This document shows positions 5,431 through 14,573 of a stretch of DNA of 64,000 bases, piece by piece. Where the stretch lies: assembly GCA_963713975.1 (NCBI GenBank), contig OY970218.1, forward strand, positions 3,072,001 through 3,136,000, in the 5' to 3' direction. Origin of the DNA: an uncultured Chloroflexia bacterium (GTDB taxonomy: Bacteria > Chloroflexota > Limnocylindria > Limnocylindrales > CSP1-4). Each line of letters opens with the position of its first letter. Position 1 is the first letter of the stretch. The translations under genes and the position numbers were made by a program. Under the pieces are notes generated by a model. It did not search any database, had not been told where the DNA came from, and worked only from the letters and a program-made list of their open reading frames with translations.

Positions 5431-6834
5431 TCAGGTCCGGCTGGTCTTGACCGGGTCTGCGGGTGGGGCGAAGAGCCAGGTCTCGGGATTGCCCTGCTTG
5501 GACATCCGCCCCAGGTCCTCGCCGTTGAGCGTGAAGTACGTCGCGCTGGACTTGCCGGTCCGCACCTCGACGGACTCTTTCGCCGTAAAGGTCAGGACCT
5601 TGCCAGGGCTGAAGACGGTCCCGGCCACGCCCGTCTGCTTCGAGATCTTCCCGTCCACCCAGACCTTGAGCCAGGCCGTCGATCCCTTGATGCTGACCAC
5701 GAGATTCACGCCCCGGTAGACGACCGAGACGTTGCGGCTCAGGCTGGTTGCCTTCCCGTCCGCAGACGTGGCGGTCGCGATGATCTGCCACTGGCCCTCG
5801 GACAGGTCCAGCGGCGTGTCGAACGAACCGTCCTCGCCCACCGGCACGGTGATCGGCCCGACTGTCGGACCAGCCGGGACAGGCTCCGCCGATGCCGAAG
5901 GCGCCGGCGATACCGGGGCCGAGGTCGCCACGGGCGTGCCGTCGCTGGTCGCCGTCTGGATCGCCTTGATGGACACGGTCGCAGCATTCGACGTCGTCCC
6001 ACGCACGGGGATCGCCCCGTTCTCGAACTGGGCCCCCTCCGCAGGGCTTTCCAGCGTGAGCGTCGGTGCCTCCGTGACGAGGAAGGGCACCGTGATGAAG
6101 ATCCGCTCCGTGTTCTCGGACGTCTTCCCGGTCTCCGGGTCCAGCGCGCTGACGTCGAACTGGTTCCGGCCGCGCCGGAGGTCGACGTCGACCGACCAGC
6201 GGCCGGAGGCATCGGCGGTGACCCGGTACGGCTGCTCCCGAGCGGCATCCGCCACGGTCACGGTGGCGCCGGGGATCGATTCGCCACGCAGCGTGAACGA
6301 GGTGCTGTCGTCGGCCACATCGAGGACGGCCTGCGAGGGGTTCGTGACGGCGAGCGTCGGCGGCTTCGCGAACCGCACCAGCTGGACGCCCATGTAGACC
6401 GCAAACACGCCGATCAGGATGGTGAGCAGGGCCGCGACCACGATCACCGGCGAGAATGTCAGGCCCTGACGGGGCGCGGCAAGTGGCTTGGGTACCGCGA
6501 GGGCCGGCTCGGTTGCGACCGATGCGTCGCCACGTTCCCGCTTCCACTGGCGGACCACATCGTCCGGATCGAGCCCGAGGTAGAGCGCGTAGTTGCGGAG
6601 GAAGCCCTTCGTGTACACCGATCCGGGCAGCTCGTTGTACTCGCCGTGCTCGAGCGCCGCGAGGTAGCGGGAACGGATCTTGGTGTCGCGCTCGGCGCGG
6701 TACAGGTCCACGCCCTTGCGCTCCCGGGCGGCGACCAGCCGCTCGGGCAGGGACGGACCTGACTCCGTCGCGTAGGCGCGGTCGGCATCGCGCGCTTCCG
6801 CGCGCGCCCGTCGCAGCCCGTCTCGCGTCGTCAT
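5431..6834 (-). CDS. rodZ: RodZ-like protein (HTH, TM helix, two Ig-like domains, DUF4115-like C-terminus)
   Basis: ARERKG..L...TKIR.RYL.ALE.G....LPG.VY.KGFLRNYA.YLGLD helix-turn-helix, then a TM segment and a C-terminal AWLKVWVDG...VRTG. Lies downstream of ftsK, the usual position. Confidence 0.8.
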   Translation of the reverse strand: MTTRDGLRRARAEARDADRAYATESGPSLPERLVAARERKGVDLYRAERDTKIRSRYLAALEHGEYNELPGSVYTKGFLRNYALYLGLDPDDVVRQWKRERGDASVATEPALAVPKPLAAPRQGLTFSPVIVVAALLTILIGVFAVYMGVQLVRFAKPPTLAVTNPSQAVLDVADDSTSFTLRGESIPGATVTVADAAREQPYRVTADASGRWSVDVDLRRGRNQFDVSALDPETGKTSENTERIFITVPFLVTEAPTLTLESPAEGAQFENGAIPVRGTTSNAATVSIKAIQTATSDGTPVATSAPVSPAPSASAEPVPAGPTVGPITVPVGEDGSFDTPLDLSEGQWQIIATATSADGKATSLSRNVSVVYRGVNLVVSIKGSTAWLKVWVDGKISKQTGVAGTVFSPGKVLTFTAKESVEVRTGKSSATYFTLNGEDLGRMSKQGNPETWLFAPPADPVKTSRT

Positions 6835-9554
6835 GCCTCGTCCTCGTCCTCGTCCGGCCCCGGACCGTCGTCGCGACGCAGGACCATCCGGGCATTCGAG
6901 CCGTCGAACGCCCCCACGTATCCCCGCGCCTCGAGCTGGTCCACGATGCGGGCAGCTCGCGCGTAGCCGATCTTGAGACGCCGCTGGAGCAGCGACGCCG
7001 AGGCGCGATCGTACTCCCGAATCACGGCGACGGCATCCGGCAGCAGCCGGTCGGCATCGTCATCGGCCAGGTCGTCGACGGATCCCGTGGCTTCCTCGTC
7101 GGACGTGATGATCGAGAGGTCATAGCGCGGATCATCGATCTGGTCGCGCCAGTACTGGGTCACCCGCCCGATCTCGGGATCGGACACGAACACGCCCTGG
7201 AGGCGCATCGGTCGTGGCAGGTCGGAGGGCTGGTAGAGCATGTCGCCGCGGCCGATCAGGTCCTCGGCACCCGGTGAGTCAAGGATCGTGCGGCTGTCGA
7301 TCTGGCTGGCCATCGCGAACGCGATCCGGCTGGGAAAGTTCGCCTTGATCAGCCCCGTGACCACGTTGACCGACGGCCGCTGTGTCGCTAGCACCATGTG
7401 GATGCCCGTCGCCCTGGCCTTCTGGGCGAGGCGCACGATCGGGTCCTCGACGTTCTTTCCCTCGCGCATCATGAGGTCGGCGAGCTCGTCGATGACGATC
7501 ACGATGTACGGCAGCCGATCCGCCGCGTCCACCCGGGTCTCGTTGAACGCCTTGATGTTGCGGGCCGTGGCGCCGGCGAACCGCCGGTAGCGGTTCTCCA
7601 TCTCGCCCACCGCCCACTTGAGGGCGGACTTGGCGCGCTCGGGCTCCGTGATCACCGGGACCAGCAGGTGCGGCAGGCCGTTGTAGCCCGCGAGTTCCAC
7701 GCGTGCCGTGTCGATGAGGATGAAGTGAACATCGTCCGGGGTCGCGTTGCACAGGAGGCTGGTGATGAGCGCGTTGACCATGACGCTCTTGCCCGAACCC
7801 GTGGCGCCCGCGATCAGCAGGTGCGGCATCTTGGACAGGTCCACGGCCAGCGCGCGGCCGGCCACGTCGCGCCCCAGGGCGAACGTCAGCTGCGACCCCG
7901 AGGCGGAGAAGTCCACCTCTTCCAGGATCCGCCGCAGCGTGACGATGTTGAACTCCTTGTTGGGGATCTCGATCCCGACCGAGCCTTTGCCGGGAATCGA
8001 CGCCTCGATCCGGATGCTGCGGGCCGCGAGGGCCATCGCGAGGTCGTCCGAGAGCGCCTCGATCCGGCTGAGCTTGACCTGGGGGGCGGGCTGGACCTCG
8101 TACTGGGTCACCACCGGGCCGGCATTGCGCCCGATGATCTGCGCCTGGATATTGAAGCCCGCCAGCTTGCGCACGATGATCTCTTCGTTGCGCGCGTGGA
8201 CCGCGTCCGCGATGTCCGTGGTGGCCGCGGACGGGATCTCACCCGGATCGAGCAGATCATGGGGCGGCAGGCGCCACTCGACGGCCTGGCCCGCTGGCGG
8301 CGAGTCCGAGGCGTCGGTGATGTCGTCGGGATCGCGGTCGACCGTGGGCGCCGGCTCCCCAGCAGGCGGGGGCGCGCCGTCGGGGCCGGTCATCGAGCCC
8401 GGAGCCACGACGGTCCCTGCACCCGCCGCCCGCGCCGGCGCGAAGGACGAGGTCGGCACCGCGGCGGGAATGCCCGGCTGCGCTCCATCCGCGCCCCAGA
8501 CACCCACGATCGCATCCGTGGCGTCGCGACCCTGGGCTCGCAGCACATGGCCCGCGGTCGTGAGACTACTATCCGGACCCGAGTCGGTCCAAACAGAGGT
8601 ATCGAGGGGCGCTGGACTCACATTCACCGGACTCCTGAGTACCTCGGAAGCCTGGTAGTTCAACACGGCCGAGAACAAGCGCGCTTCGGCCGTGCTCATC
8701 CGGAACCCAACCGGCTTTCGCTTGCTGCTGAAATGGAAGACGATTGTCGGCCCCACAAACAGACCGACCTGCTGCGCCACAGTGGTCAGAACTTCAACCC
8801 GGGGGATGTCCGCCGTGCTTGCTCTGCCGAGGAACACCACGCGTGACGATGTGAGCAGGACGGTGCCCACGTCAGATGCCTGAAGTGAGATGTGATGGTC
8901 CACCGAGTCTGCGCCAAAGGTTCCTAGCCGCACGGAAACGTTGTCCGAAACGCGAACCCGGGTTCCCGCGTACCCACCGGAGGTGCGACGAACCCGCTGT
9001 GGCTCCATCAGCTCCGCGCCCACCTCTATTAGGCCTACCTCGCCTGGCGACAAAGGAACCTTCGTGGAACTCAACACCGGCAAACTGACGCCCAGTTCGA
9101 TCTGTCGAACCTCGGCCTCTTCAAGACGCTGCTTGATGATCCCTCCAAGGCGCCGTGCGCTAGCGTTCGAGATCGCTGGATCTGGCCCAGTCATGAATGG
9201 CTCCACGGCCGCCAGCAACAGCTCGACTACCTTCTGGTGCCGCCCCACCCCTTCGATATTCGGCGCGACCGCTCGCGCCATATCAAGAAGTACTCCGTCC
9301 AACCCTCTCAGCGCGGACTCGACCATCGAGGTCCGCAGCTCCAGATCTGCGCGCGAGATCTTCGGAATTGCACCAATCGCCGCAGTGATCCGCTCACCTG
9401 CGAGTGGGTCCTCCCCACCGGAGGACACTGCCAAACCAATCGCGGCGGCAACATCCCTCGCGACCCGCGTGTCCAGGTCCCCGCGGCATCGGCCGCACAA
9501 CCGATCGTGACGGAAGAACCCGGTCCCGTCGCCGCATTGCTCACAGGCACTCAT
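6831..9554 (-). CDS. Chimeric FtsK-family ATPase: N-terminal Zn ribbon and PH-like domain fused to FtsK alpha/beta/gamma motor, no obvious TM anchor
   Basis: C-terminal ~480 aa carry GATGSGKS, IVIDELAD, ATQRPS and gamma SASLLQRRLKIGYARAARIVD. N-terminus has CEQC-x12-CGRC and DVGTVLLTSSRVVFLG. ATG at 9554 preferred because the longer ORF overlaps the upstream ftsK. Confidence 0.8.
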   Translation of the reverse strand: MSACEQCGDGTGFFRHDRLCGRCRGDLDTRVARDVAAAIGLAVSSGGEDPLAGERITAAIGAIPKISRADLELRTSMVESALRGLDGVLLDMARAVAPNIEGVGRHQKVVELLLAAVEPFMTGPDPAISNASARRLGGIIKQRLEEAEVRQIELGVSLPVLSSTKVPLSPGEVGLIEVGAELMEPQRVRRTSGGYAGTRVRVSDNVSVRLGTFGADSVDHHISLQASDVGTVLLTSSRVVFLGRASTADIPRVEVLTTVAQQVGLFVGPTIVFHFSSKRKPVGFRMSTAEARLFSAVLNYQASEVLRSPVNVSPAPLDTSVWTDSGPDSSLTTAGHVLRAQGRDATDAIVGVWGADGAQPGIPAAVPTSSFAPARAAGAGTVVAPGSMTGPDGAPPPAGEPAPTVDRDPDDITDASDSPPAGQAVEWRLPPHDLLDPGEIPSAATTDIADAVHARNEEIIVRKLAGFNIQAQIIGRNAGPVVTQYEVQPAPQVKLSRIEALSDDLAMALAARSIRIEASIPGKGSVGIEIPNKEFNIVTLRRILEEVDFSASGSQLTFALGRDVAGRALAVDLSKMPHLLIAGATGSGKSVMVNALITSLLCNATPDDVHFILIDTARVELAGYNGLPHLLVPVITEPERAKSALKWAVGEMENRYRRFAGATARNIKAFNETRVDAADRLPYIVIVIDELADLMMREGKNVEDPIVRLAQKARATGIHMVLATQRPSVNVVTGLIKANFPSRIAFAMASQIDSRTILDSPGAEDLIGRGDMLYQPSDLPRPMRLQGVFVSDPEIGRVTQYWRDQIDDPRYDLSIITSDEEATGSVDDLADDDADRLLPDAVAVIREYDRASASLLQRRLKIGYARAARIVDQLEARGYVGAFDGSNARMVLRRDDGPGPDEDEDEA
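6961..7022. repeat. 62-bp exact direct repeat, copy A (copy B at 9737-9798), encoding the FtsK gamma helix region
   Basis: gcgtagccgatcttgagacgccgctggagcagcgacgccgaggcgcgatcgtactcccgaat is read at both positions. Confidence 0.9.
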
Positions 9555-9600
9555 GCCAGGGAGCCCACTTGCCGGGTCGCGCTGGCGCCCGTTGCTGGGA

Positions 9601-12150
9601 TCACAGCTCGTCTCCATCGCCATCGAGGGAGCCATCGGGACCGTCGTCGCCACGCAACACAACTCTGGCGTTGGAGCCGTCGAAGGCACCGATGTACCTG
9701 CGAGCCTCGAGTTGGTCAATAATCCGGGCAGCCCGGGCGTAGCCGATCTTGAGACGCCGCTGGAGCAGCGACGCCGAGGCGCGATCGTACTCCCGAATGA
9801 CCCCTACCGCGTCCATCAGCAGGCGGTCGGCCTCGTCATCGGCCAGTTCGTCGACCGATCCGGTGGCCTCGCCGGTGAGCGACGTGATCGACGTGTCATA
9901 GCGTGGGTCCTCGATCTGCTCGCACCAGCATTTCACGATCCTGGCGATCTCGGCGTCCGAAACAAACACGCCCTGATGCCGAATGGGCCGCGGCACGTCG
10001 GATGGTTGGTAGAGCATGTCACCGCGGCCGATCAGGTCCTCAGCCCCTGGCGTGTCGAGAATGGTCCGGCTGTCGATCTGGCTGGCCATCGCGAACGCGA
10101 TCCGGCTGGGGAAGTTCGCCTTGATCAACCCCGTGACAACGTTGACCGAAGGCCGCTGCGTCGCGAGCACCATGTGGATGCCGGTGGCCCGCGCCTTCTG
10201 GGCGAGGCGGACGATCGGGTCCTCGACGTTCTTGCCTTCGCGCATCATCAGGTCGGCGAGCTCGTCGATAATGATCACGATGTACGGCATGCGGCGACGC
10301 TCGTCGATCCGCCGCTCCGGGTCAGGGCTCTCAGCGAGATCGTTGTAGGCGCGGATGTTGCGCGCCGCATGGGCGGCGAACGTCTTGTAGCGCCGCTCCA
10401 TCTCCAGCACAACCCAGTTGAGCGCAGCCTTGGCCTTCTCGGGCTCGGTGATGACCGGGACCAGGAGGTGCGGCAGTTTCTCGCCCTCGCTGTACGACGC
10501 GAGTTCAACGCGCTTGAGGTCCATCAAGATCATCCGGACCTCGCGCGGCGTTGTGTTGCATAGCAGACTCGTGATTAGGGCGTTGACCATGACGCTCTTG
10601 CCGGAACCGGTGGCGCCGGCGATGAGCAGATGCGGCATCCGGGCGAGATCCACTGCCCGTGCCCGGCCAGCGACATCGCGGCCCAGAGCGAAGGTAAGGC
10701 GGGATACACCGGGATCAGCGAGGTCTACCTCATCGAGAATCCGCCGAAGTGCGACGAGGTTGGACTCCTGGTTGGGGATTTCGATGCCTACCGCGGCCTT
10801 GCCGGGGATCGGGGCCTCGATCCGGATGCTGCGGGCGGCCAACGCCATCGCGAGGTCGTCGGACAGCTCCTTGATCCTGCTCAGTTTGATGTGAGCTGCT
10901 GGCTGGACCTCGTACTGCGTGACGACCGGCCCTGCGTTGCGGCCGATGATCTCCGCCTCGATCCCAAAACTCGCCAGTTTCCTCTTGATTAGCGCCTCAT
11001 TGTTCTTGTGGACGACCGAGCTGTCCTCAGGCTGCGTCGGCGGATCCCCGAGGTCGAGGAGATCCCGGGCCGGCAGTTGAAATTGCGCACCGTCCACGGT
11101 GATGGCCGCCCGCGAGGCGTCCAGAGGCGCATCGTCCGGGTGACCCATGGTCTCGGGCGACATGGCTCCCAGAGCCACAGTCCCCATCGTCCGAGGCACT
11201 CCTCCGCTGCTGTTCGTGTCCCCAATCGGCGCTTCACCGGCGTAGCCCTCGACGCCGGAGCCGACTGGAGCGCCGTTCATCCCCGATGACTCGGTCACAC
11301 CAGGCACGCGCGGCCGCGCAAACGTCGCAGACATCGGACCCGCGGTCGCGACGACAACCGGCAGGATGGCGCCGGTGTCCTCGCCGAAGGCCCCCGTCTG
11401 GCCAGGGGACTCAACGGCCGGGATCTTCTGGCCACGCCCGCGTCGGCCGGCATCCGCGGCTGAACCGTTGTTGGTCGTGGTGGTCGCGCCGGCCCCCGCG
11501 GCGGCCGCCCTGGTCGTCACCGTCGCCGGCGCCTTGGGGGTGCGGTCCTGGAGCGAGCCGCCGGCCACCTTGGCCAGGCCCGTCGCCGGCGCCAGCATGG
11601 AGCGCAGGGTGCGGTCAAAGGCGATGAGGAGCCCGGCAAGCAGGAGCACCAGCATCACCACGAACGCGCCGGGGGCCGTCAGCAGGGGCTCAAGCAGGCC
11701 GACGACGAACCGCCCGATCCGGCCGCCCGTGAACTCATTGAACTGGACCAGCTGGATGAGGCCGAGCAAGCCCACGTAGGCCATGCCGATGCCCAGGAGC
11801 GTGCGACCCCAGGGTGCTCCCGGCTCCTTGCCCGGCCCCCACTCCACGTACCAGCCCGAGAGGAGGAGCACGAACGGCAGCAGCCAGCGCCCTGTCCCGA
11901 AGAATGGCCCGGAAAGGTTGCGCCACCAGTCGGTGAGGCTGCCCTCGCCAGGGAGCAGGAGCGCGATCATCGTCACTGCCCCCAGGCCGAGCAGGAAGAT
12001 GCCGACCAGCGACCGGATAACTGCCGGCGAAAGCCCCAGCGAGACCTTGGGCAGCGGCAGGCCGCCGCCCTTCGAACGACTGCGCGACGCCGGTGAGCGC
12101 GTCGTCCGGCGCGTGGTGGAGCGCGGCGGCGTCCGCCGCGACTTCGCCAT
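9601..12150 (-). CDS. ftsK: DNA translocase FtsK/SpoIIIE (4 TM segments, linker, motor)
   Basis: N-terminal TM helices, PHLLIAGATGSGKS, DLKRVEL, IIIDELAD, gamma winged helix. Follows rnj. Confidence 0.93.
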   Translation of the reverse strand: MAKSRRTPPRSTTRRTTRSPASRSRSKGGGLPLPKVSLGLSPAVIRSLVGIFLLGLGAVTMIALLLPGEGSLTDWWRNLSGPFFGTGRWLLPFVLLLSGWYVEWGPGKEPGAPWGRTLLGIGMAYVGLLGLIQLVQFNEFTGGRIGRFVVGLLEPLLTAPGAFVVMLVLLLAGLLIAFDRTLRSMLAPATGLAKVAGGSLQDRTPKAPATVTTRAAAAGAGATTTTNNGSAADAGRRGRGQKIPAVESPGQTGAFGEDTGAILPVVVATAGPMSATFARPRVPGVTESSGMNGAPVGSGVEGYAGEAPIGDTNSSGGVPRTMGTVALGAMSPETMGHPDDAPLDASRAAITVDGAQFQLPARDLLDLGDPPTQPEDSSVVHKNNEALIKRKLASFGIEAEIIGRNAGPVVTQYEVQPAAHIKLSRIKELSDDLAMALAARSIRIEAPIPGKAAVGIEIPNQESNLVALRRILDEVDLADPGVSRLTFALGRDVAGRARAVDLARMPHLLIAGATGSGKSVMVNALITSLLCNTTPREVRMILMDLKRVELASYSEGEKLPHLLVPVITEPEKAKAALNWVVLEMERRYKTFAAHAARNIRAYNDLAESPDPERRIDERRRMPYIVIIIDELADLMMREGKNVEDPIVRLAQKARATGIHMVLATQRPSVNVVTGLIKANFPSRIAFAMASQIDSRTILDTPGAEDLIGRGDMLYQPSDVPRPIRHQGVFVSDAEIARIVKCWCEQIEDPRYDTSITSLTGEATGSVDELADDEADRLLMDAVGVIREYDRASASLLQRRLKIGYARAARIIDQLEARRYIGAFDGSNARVVLRGDDGPDGSLDGDGDEL

Positions 12151-12153
12151 CCG

Positions 12154-13821
12154 CTAGACCTCGACGACCACGGGGAAGACCATCGGGCGGCGCTTCGTCT
12201 GCTCGTACAGGAAGCGCGACACGCCGTCCTTGATCTGGACCTTGAGCAGCGCGATCTCGGAGATCCGGTCACCAGGCGAGTTCACGGCCACCTCGATGCG
12301 GCGGATCGCCTCCTCGATGATCCGGTCCTCCTCGGGTCCGTGGACGAACCCGCGGGTGATGATCTCGGGGCGCCCGACGACCTTGCCGTTCTGCTTGTCC
12401 ACCTGGACCACGATCATGAACATGCCGTCGTTGGCGAGCGCGCGACGGTCGCGCAGGACGATGTCGCCGACCTCGCCCACGGACAGCCCGTCCACGTACA
12501 GGTACCCGGCTGCGACCGGCTGGCCACGTCGGGCGCTGCCGTCCTCGAAGATCTCGATCGGCGTGCCGTTCTCGATGATGAACACGTTGCCGGGGTCGAC
12601 GCCGGTCTCGGTCGCCAGGCGGCCGTGCTGCACCAGCATCCGGAACTCGCCGTGCATCGGGATGAAGTAGCGCGGCTTGGTGAGCCCGAGCATTAGCTTG
12701 AGCTCCTCCTGGCTGGCGTGGCCCGACACGTGGGCCCGCTTGATCGCGTGGTAGAAGACGTTGGCCCCGGCCTTGAACAGGTTGTCGATGGTCCGCGCCA
12801 CGTATTCCTCGTTGCCCGGGATCGGGCTGGCCGACACGATCACGGTATCCCCGGGCTGGATCTCCACGAACCGGTGGTCGCGGTTGGCCATGCGGGCCAG
12901 GCCCGCCATCGGCTCACCCTGGGCCCCCGTGGTCGCGATGACCAGCTTTTCCGGCGGCACGTCCTTGATCTTGTCCTTGCCGACGACCATCGACGGCTCG
13001 TACTTCAGGTAGCCGAGGTCCGTGGCGATCCGGAAGTTCTGCTCCATGGAGCGGCCGATGACCGTCGTCTTGCGACCGAGGTCCGCGGCTGCATCGAGGA
13101 CCTGCTGGACGCGCGCGATGTTGCTGGCGAACGTGGCGATGATCACCCGCCCGTCCAGCGGCTCCATGATCTCGCGGAAGGCCTCTCCCACGATCCGCTC
13201 GGACGGCGTATAGCCCGGGTTCTCGGCGCGGGTCGAGTCCGAGAGGAGGCAGATCACGCCCTCCTCGCCCAGGCGGGCCAGGATGTGGAAGTCGGACAGC
13301 CTGCCGTCGACCGGCGTGTGGTCGAACTTGAAGTCGCCGGTGTGCACGACCGTCCCGACCGGCGTCCGCAGGGCGATGCCCATCGCGTCCGGGATCGAGT
13401 GGCCGATGCGGAACGGGATCGCCGTGAACGGCCCGATCGGCAGCTCGTCGCCGGGCTCCAGGGAGTGCAGCGGGTTGTTGTGGAGCTTGTGCTCCTTGAT
13501 CTTGTTGCCCAGGAGGCCACGGGCCAGGGTGCTGGCGTAGACCGGCACGCCGGGGAACTCGGGCAGCACGTAGGGCAGGCCGCCGACATGGTCCTCGTGG
13601 GCGTGGGTGATGAGGAATGCGCGGAGCTTGGAGCGGTTCTCCTTGAGGTAGGTCACGTCTGGAACGACGAGGTCGATGCCGAACATCTCCTCGTCGGGGA
13701 ACATCAGTCCGCAGTCGATGACGACGATGTCGTCGCCGTACTCGAACACGTAGCAGTTCTTGCCGATCTCCCCTACCCCACCGAGCGGGATGATGCGGAG
13801 CGGCGTGTTCGGATCAGCCAT
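12154..13821 (-). CDS. rnj: Ribonuclease J
   Basis: PLGGVGEIGKN, THAHEDHVG, HSIPD, TGDFKFD, GAQGEP, HVSGH. ATG at 13821. Confidence 0.96.
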   Translation of the reverse strand: MADPNTPLRIIPLGGVGEIGKNCYVFEYGDDIVVIDCGLMFPDEEMFGIDLVVPDVTYLKENRSKLRAFLITHAHEDHVGGLPYVLPEFPGVPVYASTLARGLLGNKIKEHKLHNNPLHSLEPGDELPIGPFTAIPFRIGHSIPDAMGIALRTPVGTVVHTGDFKFDHTPVDGRLSDFHILARLGEEGVICLLSDSTRAENPGYTPSERIVGEAFREIMEPLDGRVIIATFASNIARVQQVLDAAADLGRKTTVIGRSMEQNFRIATDLGYLKYEPSMVVGKDKIKDVPPEKLVIATTGAQGEPMAGLARMANRDHRFVEIQPGDTVIVSASPIPGNEEYVARTIDNLFKAGANVFYHAIKRAHVSGHASQEELKLMLGLTKPRYFIPMHGEFRMLVQHGRLATETGVDPGNVFIIENGTPIEIFEDGSARRGQPVAAGYLYVDGLSVGEVGDIVLRDRRALANDGMFMIVVQVDKQNGKVVGRPEIITRGFVHGPEEDRIIEEAIRRIEVAVNSPGDRISEIALLKVQIKDGVSRFLYEQTKRRPMVFPVVVEV

Positions 13822-13838
13822 GGTCGCCTCGATGCCGG

Positions 13839-14573
13839 CTAGAAGAGGGTGAGCTGGGATGCGTCGTCGGCCGCGGGATCGGCGGCGGACGGCGCAGGGG
13901 CATGAATGGGAGCGCTCGCGGGAGTGGAGGTCGGCGCTACGACAGGCGCTGCAGGCGCCGTGGCCTCGGCCTGGCGATCGCGATGGGCGCGGGCACGCAC
14001 CAGGACCTCGGGGACGCGCGCCATGTCCTCGAAGCTCTCGCGCTCGATGGCGGCCGTGCGCAGGGCGGCCGCAGGGTGATACATCGCGAACACGAGGGCA
14101 TCGAGGGCACCGGTCTCGGGGTCCGCCGCCACGCTGGTCCCGTGAACCTGTCCGATGCGTGCGCCGGGCATGAACGTGCCCATCGAGTAGCGGCCGAGCG
14201 TCACGACCATCGCCGGATCCAGCACCTCCAGCTGTCGTCGGAGGTGCGGCGCACAAGCGGCGATCTCGTCGGGCTGCGGGTCGCGGTTGTCGGGCGGCCG
14301 GCACTTCACGACGTTGGTGATGAACACGTCCTCACGCCGCCAGCCGATGCTCTCGAGGAGCCGTACCAGAAGTCCGCCGGCCCGGCCGACGAAGGGCCGT
14401 CCGTCGCGATCCTCGTTGAAACCCGGGCCCTCGCCCACGAAGACCACCTCGGTGTCAGGGTCGCCCTCGCCCGGAACCGCCTGCGTCCGCGTCTCGTGCA
14501 GGCGGCAGCCGGTGCAGGCACGGACATCGTTCGCGATCAGCTCGAGCGCCGCAAGGCGCTCGTCGCGGGTCAC
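13839..14573 (-). CDS. Uracil-DNA glycosylase family 4 (4Fe-4S)
   Basis: CTGCRL, GEGPG..ED..GRPFVGRAG, NVVKCRPPDNRDP, YHPAA. Confidence 0.92.
   Translation of the reverse strand: MTRDERLAALELIANDVRACTGCRLHETRTQAVPGEGDPDTEVVFVGEGPGFNEDRDGRPFVGRAGGLLVRLLESIGWRREDVFITNVVKCRPPDNRDPQPDEIAACAPHLRRQLEVLDPAMVVTLGRYSMGTFMPGARIGQVHGTSVAADPETGALDALVFAMYHPAAALRTAAIERESFEDMARVPEVLVRARAHRDRQAEATAPAAPVVAPTSTPASAPIHAPAPSAADPAADDASQLTLF

Follow-up and report, generated by a model that had tools for sequence, protein, structure and literature searches.

It is already known that an anchored and a soluble DNA pump of the FtsK family can work in one cell. The closest described case is that of SpoIIIE and SftA in Bacillus subtilis. 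Passages of one review (PMC5357621) describe SftA as a soluble protein that is drawn to the septum and acts ahead of its closure, with SpoIIIE acting on trapped DNA, and pose the question of what advantage two translocases confer. Here we describe a pair of FtsK-family genes, ftsK-A and ftsK-B, that probably arose by one insertion into a single ftsK, in this lineage and after its split from the closest relative sampled (G013), leaving two complete genes. They lie within a window of 64,000 nucleotides (G000:C1:3072001-3136000) of a genome that consists of a single contig (3.62 Mb, 70.8% GC), and the source names of the nearest proteins point to Candidatus Limnocylindrales, Chloroflexota. As in B. 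subtilis, one paralogue is anchored and the other has no transmembrane segment, and both retain motor and gamma domains. Unlike SpoIIIE and SftA, the two genes are adjacent, the pair appears to be young and belongs to one lineage, it is known from sequence alone, and one of its motors is apparently a xenologue from a sister group of species. The soluble protein also begins with an N-terminal domain, here called X, of predicted zinc-ribbon, helical and PH-GRAM character, and its likeness to SftA lies in loss of the anchor and retention of motor and gamma. Literature searches, at the level of their listings, returned no account of the origin of such a pair, of such a pair itself or of X-FtsK fusions.

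Within the genus, FtsK is normally encoded by one gene. In G013 and G018, for instance, the same rnj-ftsK-rodZ synteny is seen, with the same ATGA overlap, and the single protein is made of two halves orthologous to the N-domain of A and to the linker, motor and gamma of B. Here, unlike in those genomes, the halves stand in two genes with 2,890 bp of foreign sequence between them. An earlier reading of this DNA, made from the sequence only (the sequence-only reading), had proposed a cassette of ~2.9 kb at ~8510-11390 in the linker region and had suggested that the locus be compared in relatives. We aligned the locus by blastn to six of them (G013, G005, G022, G009, G024 and G018); in all six both flanks are colinear and 8470-11392 is skipped. 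In G013, window 15499-11393 aligns at 85.9% identity and window 8469-4000 at 82.5%, with 45 bp of G013 sequence between the two blocks. The codons at the junction read CAG ACC GGC / GTG TGG GGC in G013 (PGQTG/VWGSES), CAG ACG GGG / GCC TTC GGC in ftsK-A (PGQTG/AFGEDTG) and ATC GTG GGT / GTC TGG GGC in ftsK-B (DAIVG/VWGADGA). Native sequence thus ends in A and restarts in B at the same point, which defines the insert as 8502-11391, with limits uncertain by one codon either way owing to the shared GGN-G. The linker remnants lined up in the sequence-only reading are indeed in register, and X reads in frame into the native linker, the junction falling at the conserved PGQTG/VWG motif. After PGQTG, genus FtsKs continue with [V/M/A]WG, and those of one clade with AFG. 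The full motif, GRRGR-x(9-11)-PGQ[TV]G-[VMA][WF]G, closes the N-domain in all 29 genus-level FtsKs compared, and the insert lies exactly inside it.

The insert itself consists of only parts of two ftsK open reading frames (ORFs), which leaves no room for an integrase gene, in line with the sequence-only reading. PHROG and Pfam searches of the insert gave matches to FtsK only, with no recombinase or transposase gene. No pair of flanking repeats was found at 8502 and 11391, whether inverted repeats, att-type direct repeats or a target-site duplication, so the hallmarks of an integrase-borne element (a recombinase gene, with terminal repeats or a target-site duplication) are absent from it. Upstream of the two junctions, the sequences align no better than shuffles do (20/500 and 297/500). 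A frame-shifted GRRGR...PGQTG remnant upstream of VWG in gene B was considered as well and dropped, as it too was not above shuffles. When the ends of the insert are joined as a circle, one open gene results, running from the spacer through X, linker A and motor A to the stop.

The two motors have different ancestries. We built a tree of 47 motor rows (quick IQ-TREE search; support from the Shimodaira-Hasegawa-like approximate likelihood ratio test; L025 excluded because its match is truncated). Motor B falls in the main genus group as sister to the only motor of G013 (support 96, 93% identity). Motor A belongs to a separate clade of 19 rows (support 100, stem 0.33), together with G004, G018, metagenome proteins and P0005-P0020; we refer to this as the A type. 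Its best match is P0006 (89%), whereas A and B share 73% protein identity over 510 aligned positions. Forcing A and B to be sisters lowers the log-likelihood (lnL) by 143, with P = 7e-16 in the approximately unbiased (AU) test, which excludes duplication in place. The motor trees called for earlier therefore put the upstream motor away from the orthologue at this locus, and the downstream motor, far from being the outlier, is host-like as had been supposed. The A-type clade (G004, G018, L070, P0005-P0020) carries a small insertion, SYSEGEKLPHLL, on its long stem of 0.33, and the ratio of nonsynonymous to synonymous substitution rates (dN/dS) between motor clades is 0.31, versus 0.08-0.17 within them. 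The long stem and the raised ratio suggest that, within a single genus, the protein sequence of an essential motor changed in a burst.

The change of ancestry can also be followed along ftsK-A. For this, we took as informative the columns at which the residue of G013 and the one most common among nine A-type proteins disagree. From residue 254 to 849, 67 such columns match the A type, 2 match G013 and 15 neither; for linker A alone the counts are 9, 0 and 5, and this linker is of the A-clade form GAFG.D...GPMSATFAP.R. From residue 126 to 253, five columns match G013 and one the A type. The first 125 residues have seven A-type columns, which may be changes private to G013. Overall identity behaves in the same way. 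The N-domain is 82% identical to that of G013 (199/244) and 75% to that of P0007 (184/244), and the remainder is 71% identical to G013 and 82% to P0007. In a tree of N-domains, ftsK-A is sister to G013 (support 89).

Base composition sets the insert apart from the chromosome. At 64.5% GC, it lies 3.3 standard deviations (SD) below the genome mean of 70.8% (SD 1.9%), in the lowest 0.5% of 7,244 equal-size genome windows, and its tetranucleotide distance is matched by 1% of 400 random windows. The profiles of tetranucleotides and of GC content at third codon positions (GC3) that had been proposed thus show a compositional break far beyond chance. The local contrast that gave rise to the proposal is accurate: GC is 58.3% at 10681-10740 and 71.7% at 7861-7920 (hand counts, ~58% and ~72%), and the atypical codons CTA ATC ACG AGT CTG CTA TGC AAC ACA are found exactly at 10578-10552, versus CTC ATC ACC AGC CTC CTG TGC AAC GCG at 7769-7743. 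Codons ending in A or T make up 9.9% of the transmembrane (TM) part of ftsK-A (25/253), 23% of linker A (21/91), 17.6% of motor A (89/505), 29.9% of X (105/351), 14% of linker B (9/64) and 9.1% of motor B (45/492). GC3 is 0.90 in the TM part, 0.77 in linker A, 0.82 in motor A, 0.70 in X and 0.91 in motor B; motors of seven relatives range from 0.92 to 0.97, with 0.95 for the A-type G018 and G004. Across the six relatives that were profiled, GC3 is always highest in the motor part of the gene, whereas in ftsK-A the motor falls below the TM part. The lowered GC3 of linker A, motor A and X points to a common history of these three, on neither this chromosome nor any A-type chromosome sampled.

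We then asked how the parts of the pair are distributed. A single full ftsK motor is present at the locus in 24/24 genus genomes searched, and additional matches are split pieces or distant. When motor A was searched across the family, 381/400 other genomes gave a match, none above 80% identity; this draw of 400 was made without G004 and G018 and with four unpublished genomes. A degenerate DNA pattern for YSEGEKLPHLL identified two metagenome contigs with an A-type ftsK. One (L070) has the ordinary rnj-ftsK-rodZ row, and the other (L071) has rnj and ftsK and ends after ftsK. The row in G018 is likewise ordinary, and the arrangement in L070 and G018 indicates that a group of related species has the A type as its regular ftsK. 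Judging from these relatives, the "foreign" motor A is derived from a related species of the same genus and not from a distant donor. For X, the picture is different. A six-frame search found a close copy in 0/69 other genus genomes, two of which contain distant matches (27-28%). Across 400 genomes of the order there were six distant matches, and a profile run on 400 genomes of the class gave five, of which three are stand-alone genes of ~280-390 codons. A word-based search of 5.8 billion proteins with X and the junction returned solely the mis-started gene call of this genome. Scans of genome and metagenome contigs with X gave no close relative, and a scan of genome contigs with the N-terminal part of P0128, an X-FtsK fusion considered below, gave no match.

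Extra genus-type motor DNA outside the normal ftsK gene is also seen in three other species of the genus, as ectopic motor-only second copies: L082 8040-9525 (G104:C1), L083 7613-9075 (G206:C3) and L084 254-1701 (G233:C14). These are 77-88% identical to motor B, have a GC3 of 0.90-0.93 and start at RDPEDVTDA, the conserved end of the linker. Each is broken by one or two frame changes and has no N-domain, and, unlike ftsK-A and ftsK-B, they lie elsewhere in the genome. The copy in G104 sits in a stretch of 62-65% GC and adjoins ZacA-like (7.6e-64) and ZacB-like (8.1e-34) genes and a Cys-rich ORF of 743 aa.

Both genes retain complete FtsK motors. The sequence-only reading had seen a full FtsK motor at the end of each, and Pfam finds all three domains in ftsK-A and ftsK-B, respectively: FtsK_alpha (PF17854; 1.5e-30, residues 359-460, and 2.4e-29, residues 484-587 of P0002), the FtsK_SpoIIIE motor (PF01580; 1.2e-58 and 4.3e-60) and FtsK_gamma (PF09397; 3.2e-21 and 4.8e-23). 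The motifs GATGSGKS, DELADLM and ATQRPS are intact in both; in A, Walker A is at 512, Walker B at 629 and ATQRPS, which we take to be the "arginine finger", at 663. The gamma recognition helix, LLQRRLKIGYARAAR, is the same in the two proteins. Hydrophobic segments were found, as expected for an anchor in the upstream gene, in ftsK-A only (36-70, 117-137 and 148-183). Its match to FtsK_4TM remains under the cut-off (21.2 vs 23.1 bits), and it is the three long hydrophobic stretches, together with the 82% N-domain identity to G013, that identify it as membrane-anchored. No membrane segment was detected in ftsK-B, where the highest 19-residue Kyte-Doolittle window scores 1.53 and none reaches 1.6; with its motor and gamma retained, it has the make-up of a soluble paralogue. 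No further full FtsK was found in the genome, the third Pfam match being a 40-residue P-loop only.

To gauge selection, we computed the dN/dS ratios that had been asked for; these are ~0.12-0.14 for both motors (A vs G018, 0.14; A vs G004, 0.13; B vs G013, 0.12). Such ratios indicate that both motors are under purifying selection. Between A and B, dS is 0.82, as large as between species clades. Gene conversion between the two was considered and rejected, since synonymous divergence is high in all windows: pS is 0.36-0.62 in each 60-codon window, residues 645-704 included, where pN is 0.01. These residues are invariant in all genus FtsKs, so their identity reflects constraint and not conversion. 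As a reference for conservation, we used the 251 columns that are at least 97% conserved in 44 anchored FtsKs. Motor A departs from these at 2/251 (E427K, G818R) and motor B at 4/251 (S521G, P574S, R665H, K672A). The last of these changes gives B the sequence DTA at ~7704-7712 (P0002 residues 670-672), versus D[L/P]K in the 44 anchored proteins (DLK in the genus, DPK in the sister family). The fusion P0128 has DTA too; the shared DTA could be a convergent change linked to the missing anchor or the trace of a short conversion tract. Terminal branches are 0.14 for A and 0.076 for B, each longer than that of the nearest relative (0.019 for G013).

No Pfam (even at E 10), PHROG, NCBIfam or PADLOC model matched X. 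To see whether X has relatives, we scanned 1.84 billion representative proteins with HMMER and found 189 homologues at E<=1e-3. The best, P0124 (326 aa), is 36% identical (E 1.2e-42), with residues 1-304 aligned. Because homologues align from residue 1, the start of ftsK-B is taken to be the ATG at 9554. The stored gene call for ftsK-B (P0003, 679 aa) begins at a GTG inside the PH-like fold; its start is 228 residues short and leaves ~730 nt apparently intergenic (window 8871-9554). A structure model of X (predicted local distance difference test score 77, from a 7-row alignment) has a CxxC...CxxC ribbon, five helices and a beta sandwich (strands 174-285) with a C-terminal helix at 288-307. 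In VIA-align, the sandwich matches the PH-GRAM domain of myotubularin-related protein 2 (MTMR2) with Z 13.3 and a root-mean-square deviation of 2.4 over 106 aligned residues, and other PH-like domains nearly as well (Lam6, Z 12.2; Vps36, Z 11.7); Foldseek finds the Vps36 PH domain (E 3.7e-4, probability 1.0). As modelled, then, the second half of X is a PH/GRAM-like fold, recognizable by structure and not by the Pfam PH, GRAM or bacterial PH sequence families, although one homologue, P0143, does match GRAM (1.5e-6). The 189 homologues aligned from the first residue and the modelled fold indicate that X is a real protein domain. A homodimer prediction for X, run without controls, scored 0.00.

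Among the best 150 of the 189 homologues, 126 have no Pfam family at E<=1e-5 and 11 match a Pfam zinc ribbon. Added domains are an FtsK motor in two (P0125, P0128), FtsK_gamma with an Mrr nuclease in one (P0231), an Mrr nuclease alone in one (P0209), SHOCT in four, and GRAM, DnaJ, TPR and PG_binding in one each. Leads from a language-model atlas are clusters of hypothetical proteins of ~300 residues from several phyla. Stand-alone homologues in G116, G050 and G041 have neighbours without clear pattern, as judged from a crude GC3-based choice of ORFs. The two fusions to a motor, P0128 (736 aa) and P0125 (463 aa, truncated), have N-domains of the same family as X at 31-42% identity, and their motors are 63-68% identical to the genus motors compared and 59% to a motor of family f2. 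Unlike ftsK-B, P0128 is without the alpha domain and most of the linker, and P0125 has a degenerate Walker A. In a genus relative, another distant X module (profile E 4.5e-20) opens a 661-aa protein with an unrelated C-terminal half, encoded at L043 415-2400 (G041:C87), away from the ftsK locus.

How might the pair have come about? Under a single insertion, a foreign piece of 2,890 bp would have entered ftsK at the boundary of membrane domain and linker, inside PGQTG/VWG. It would have brought, in this order, an A-type linker, motor and gamma, a stop, 46 nt, and the X ORF running in frame into the native linker. FtsK-A would thereby have come to combine the native membrane anchor with a borrowed motor, and ftsK-B to carry the original motor, anchorless, under X. 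This is the outcome that the sequence-only reading had envisaged, namely an anchored FtsK restored and the original motor placed under a foreign N-terminus, and the native halves are indeed distributed over A and B in this way. The most likely route of entry would be recombination with DNA of a related species or of an element. In naturally transformable bacteria, homology-facilitated illegitimate recombination uses homology to anchor one end of incoming DNA and microhomology to join the other. A comparable process could have operated here, with ftsK homology directing one side and an illegitimate join at the GGN-G microhomology closing the other. That the junctions are in register suggests pairing between the arriving DNA and the host gene by way of ftsK homology, and the lack of duplicated homology, together with the GGN-G overlap, suggests an illegitimate join on at least one side. 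In common with that process, neither integrase nor repeats are involved, the likeness being drawn from the junctions alone; unlike it, no recipient DNA was lost and two in-frame genes resulted.

Several observations weigh against this account. No donor was found, X is absent from the A-type contigs L070 and L071, and a close relative of X was not met in the genome and metagenome scans. With ~86% and ~83% DNA identity on the flanks, even the closest relative is no near neighbour that could date the event. An exit and a return at the same point, in register, would be a coincidence if the join were purely illegitimate. G818R in A, at an otherwise invariant gamma glycine near the recognition helix, and the DLK to DTA change in B, with loss of the conserved lysine, could both mean altered activity. 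Trees of the N-domain and of rodZ group G000 and G013 with A-type species and G024/G012/G015, whereas the motor tree sets B and G013 elsewhere, with G005 and others (support 88). Taken at face value, the flank trees would fit a native A-type gene and a later arrival of the B type; however, the flank grouping imposed on the motor data is not rejected by the AU test (p 0.08). One caveat here is that the order of events is not proven, parsimony and composition being what speaks for it. Of the proposal that a cassette entered an ancestral single ftsK, relatives, trees and composition bear out the insertion, and the sequence of steps stands as a plausible reconstruction.

The most serious competitor, which we nonetheless regard as unlikely, takes up the discordance of the trees. 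On this account the pair is older: the ancestor shared by this genome and G013, whose ftsK was wholly A-type, gained downstream of it a complete X-linker-motor gene of the other type, and G013 later deleted linker A, motor A and X in frame, rebuilding PGQTG-VWG. The N-domain and rodZ trees agree with this, as does the resemblance of the whole of ftsK-A to P0007 (75% in the N-domain, 82% in the rest); whole X-FtsK fusion genes are known elsewhere (P0128, P0125), and a single loss would suffice. Against it, two events are required, one of them an exact in-frame deletion, and the discordance between flanks and motor is itself not significant. It would not explain why GC3 is low in linker A and motor A, next to a TM part at 0.90 and G018 and G004 at 0.95, and the incoming gene would have been compositionally mixed, with X at 0.70 and motor B at 0.91.

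A second possibility is a special case of the single insertion, and one to which we assign a rather low probability. Here the incoming DNA would have been a ready-made mobile gene, a circular or concatemeric copy of a soluble X-FtsK gene on a lower-GC element, integrated by one crossover at the 5' edge of homology. The insert is a circular permutation whose ends join into an open X-linker-motor gene, all three of its parts have lowered GC3, and homologous pairing would give in-register junctions. X-FtsK genes exist, and movement of ftsK motor DNA within the genus is evident from the ectopic copies in G104, G206 and G233. However, a crossover at this poorly conserved edge, and not in the long conserved core of the motor, is unlikely, and there is no duplicated homology beside the insert. 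An A-type X-FtsK gene was not found in the protein, genome or metagenome scans, and the DTA signature of X-fused motors sits in B, not A. An extension of this idea, that X-linker-motor genes form a small class of recombinase-free mobile genes which target host ftsK by motor homology, seems to us very improbable. If true, one step would make an anchored and a soluble gene with motors swapped, at the boundary of N-domain and linker, and the cycle would include, as stages before and after this one, the ectopic motor-only copies and the degenerate P0125 and P0128.

A further question is whether ftsK-B is still a chromosome-segregation enzyme. It could be a decaying remnant, or could be drifting towards a defence or mobile-element translocase, although we think neither at all likely. 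Its terminal branch is four times that of G013 (0.076 vs 0.019), and the DLK lysine is gone both in B and in P0128. Among the other X-fused motors, P0125 has its degenerate Walker A and P0128 no alpha domain. Mrr nucleases are found fused to PH-like relatives of X (P0209, P0231), in one case with an FtsK gamma, and defence proteins such as SspH can contain FtsK-like motors. Set against this, ftsK-B has an open frame of 907 codons, a dN/dS of 0.12 vs G013 and changes at 4/251 conserved positions, with catalytic motifs and the gamma recognition helix intact. X has no PADLOC match, and the genes stand in a housekeeping row and not in an island. 

The possibility that assembly fused the sequences of two coexisting strains differing in the type of their ftsK (A in one, B in the other) is slight. 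Both motor types do occur in the genus, and the structure is known from the assembly alone. Yet the genome is one 3.62 Mb contig, and long frames are open across both junctions. A strain chimera cannot supply X, which is absent from the ftsK locus of six relatives and two metagenome contigs and has no close copy in 69 other genus genomes, and the GC3 of motor A is unlike that of any sampled strain. Tandem duplication in place with later divergence of the motor copies, to which the adjacency, shared orientation and common domain order of the genes might seem to point, is already refuted by the sister-group test, by an A-B dS like that between species clades and by its failure to explain X.

Returning to a single insertion, one can ask what the two proteins would do. 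The spacing is tight, with a gap of 3 nt between the rnj stop and the ftsK-A start, and a scan of window 6500-12600 found no promoter-like or terminator-like sites; together, the tight spacing and the lack of terminator-like sites suggest that both proteins are made from one transcript. FtsK-A would keep the septum-anchored role, through its native divisome-facing N-domain, at the closing septum. FtsK-B would be a cytoplasmic or peripherally targeted hexameric DNA pump which, given the same gamma recognition helix, presumably reads the same polarity motif as A, and X would place or regulate it. A and B could thus divide labour in the manner of SpoIIIE and SftA. The DTA of B, the loss of alpha in P0128 and the degenerate Walker A of P0125 hint that X-fused motors may drift from the canonical enzyme over time.

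If this account holds, the birth of an anchored and soluble pair has been caught nearly clean: one insertion, limits known to the base, and two motors of known and differing ancestry. The evidence comes from the sequence analysis of one genome. Sister species keep the ancestral state, with a single motor in the 24/24 searched and no close X in 69, and later substitutions can be read off, an example being the lysine lost by the released motor and lost as well in another X fusion. The locus would amount to a natural experiment on three points: the splitting of an essential gene while its function is kept, the front end that a soluble FtsK requires, and the motor residues that change once the anchor is lost. 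The zinc-ribbon/PH-GRAM module, widespread as a protein of ~300 residues, can also be counted among the partners of FtsK.

On the minus strand, rnj, ftsK-A, ftsK-B and rodZ follow one another head to tail in this order, and their parts are listed in Table 1.

Table 1. Features of the rnj-ftsK-ftsK-rodZ row, in window coordinates
Feature	Coordinates	Strand	Description
rnj (ribonuclease J)	12154..14304	-	Pfam RNase_J_b_CASP 2.1e-47, RNase_J_C 2.4e-25; colinear in relatives
ftsK-A, 849 aa	9601..12150	-	Native N-terminal membrane domain with inserted linker, alpha/beta motor and gamma
Native part of ftsK-A, residues 1-253	11392..12150	-	Membrane domain to end of GRRGR...PGQTG motif; GC3 ~0.90
Insert, 2,890 bp	8502..11391	-	Linker A, motor A, gamma, stop, 46 nt spacer, X ORF without stop
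Linker A, residues 254-344	11119..11391	-	"AFG...GPMSATFA" type, as in A clade
Motor A (alpha, beta, gamma), residues 345-849	9604..11118	-	Xenologous; A clade by tree
Spacer, 46 nt	9555..9600	-	Between ftsK-A stop (TGA 9601-9603) and ftsK-B start
ftsK-B, 907 aa from ATG 9554	6831..9554	-	New N-domain with native linker, motor and gamma
New N-domain X, 351 codons	8502..9554	-	Predicted zinc ribbon, five helices, PH/GRAM-like fold, 45-residue tail
PH/GRAM-like fold in X, model residues 160-309	8628..9077	-	Predicted; structure matches
Native linker B	8310..8501	-	Starts at VWG; "VWG...SSFAPARA" type, common to G013
Motor B (alpha, beta, gamma)	6834..8309	-	Positional and phylogenetic orthologue of relatives' single ftsK motor
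rodZ	5431..6834	-	Pfam HTH_25 3.7e-22, RodZ_C

Within the spacer there is a possible remnant of the rodZ 5' end, the match being too weak to call. The ftsK-B stop and the rodZ ATG overlap as ATGA at 6831-6834, as had been noticed from the sequence. RodZ itself (window 5431-6834) contains, between HTH and RodZ_C, matches to the Ig-like Big_6 (1.7e-7) and to Glucodextran_B (2.8e-12).

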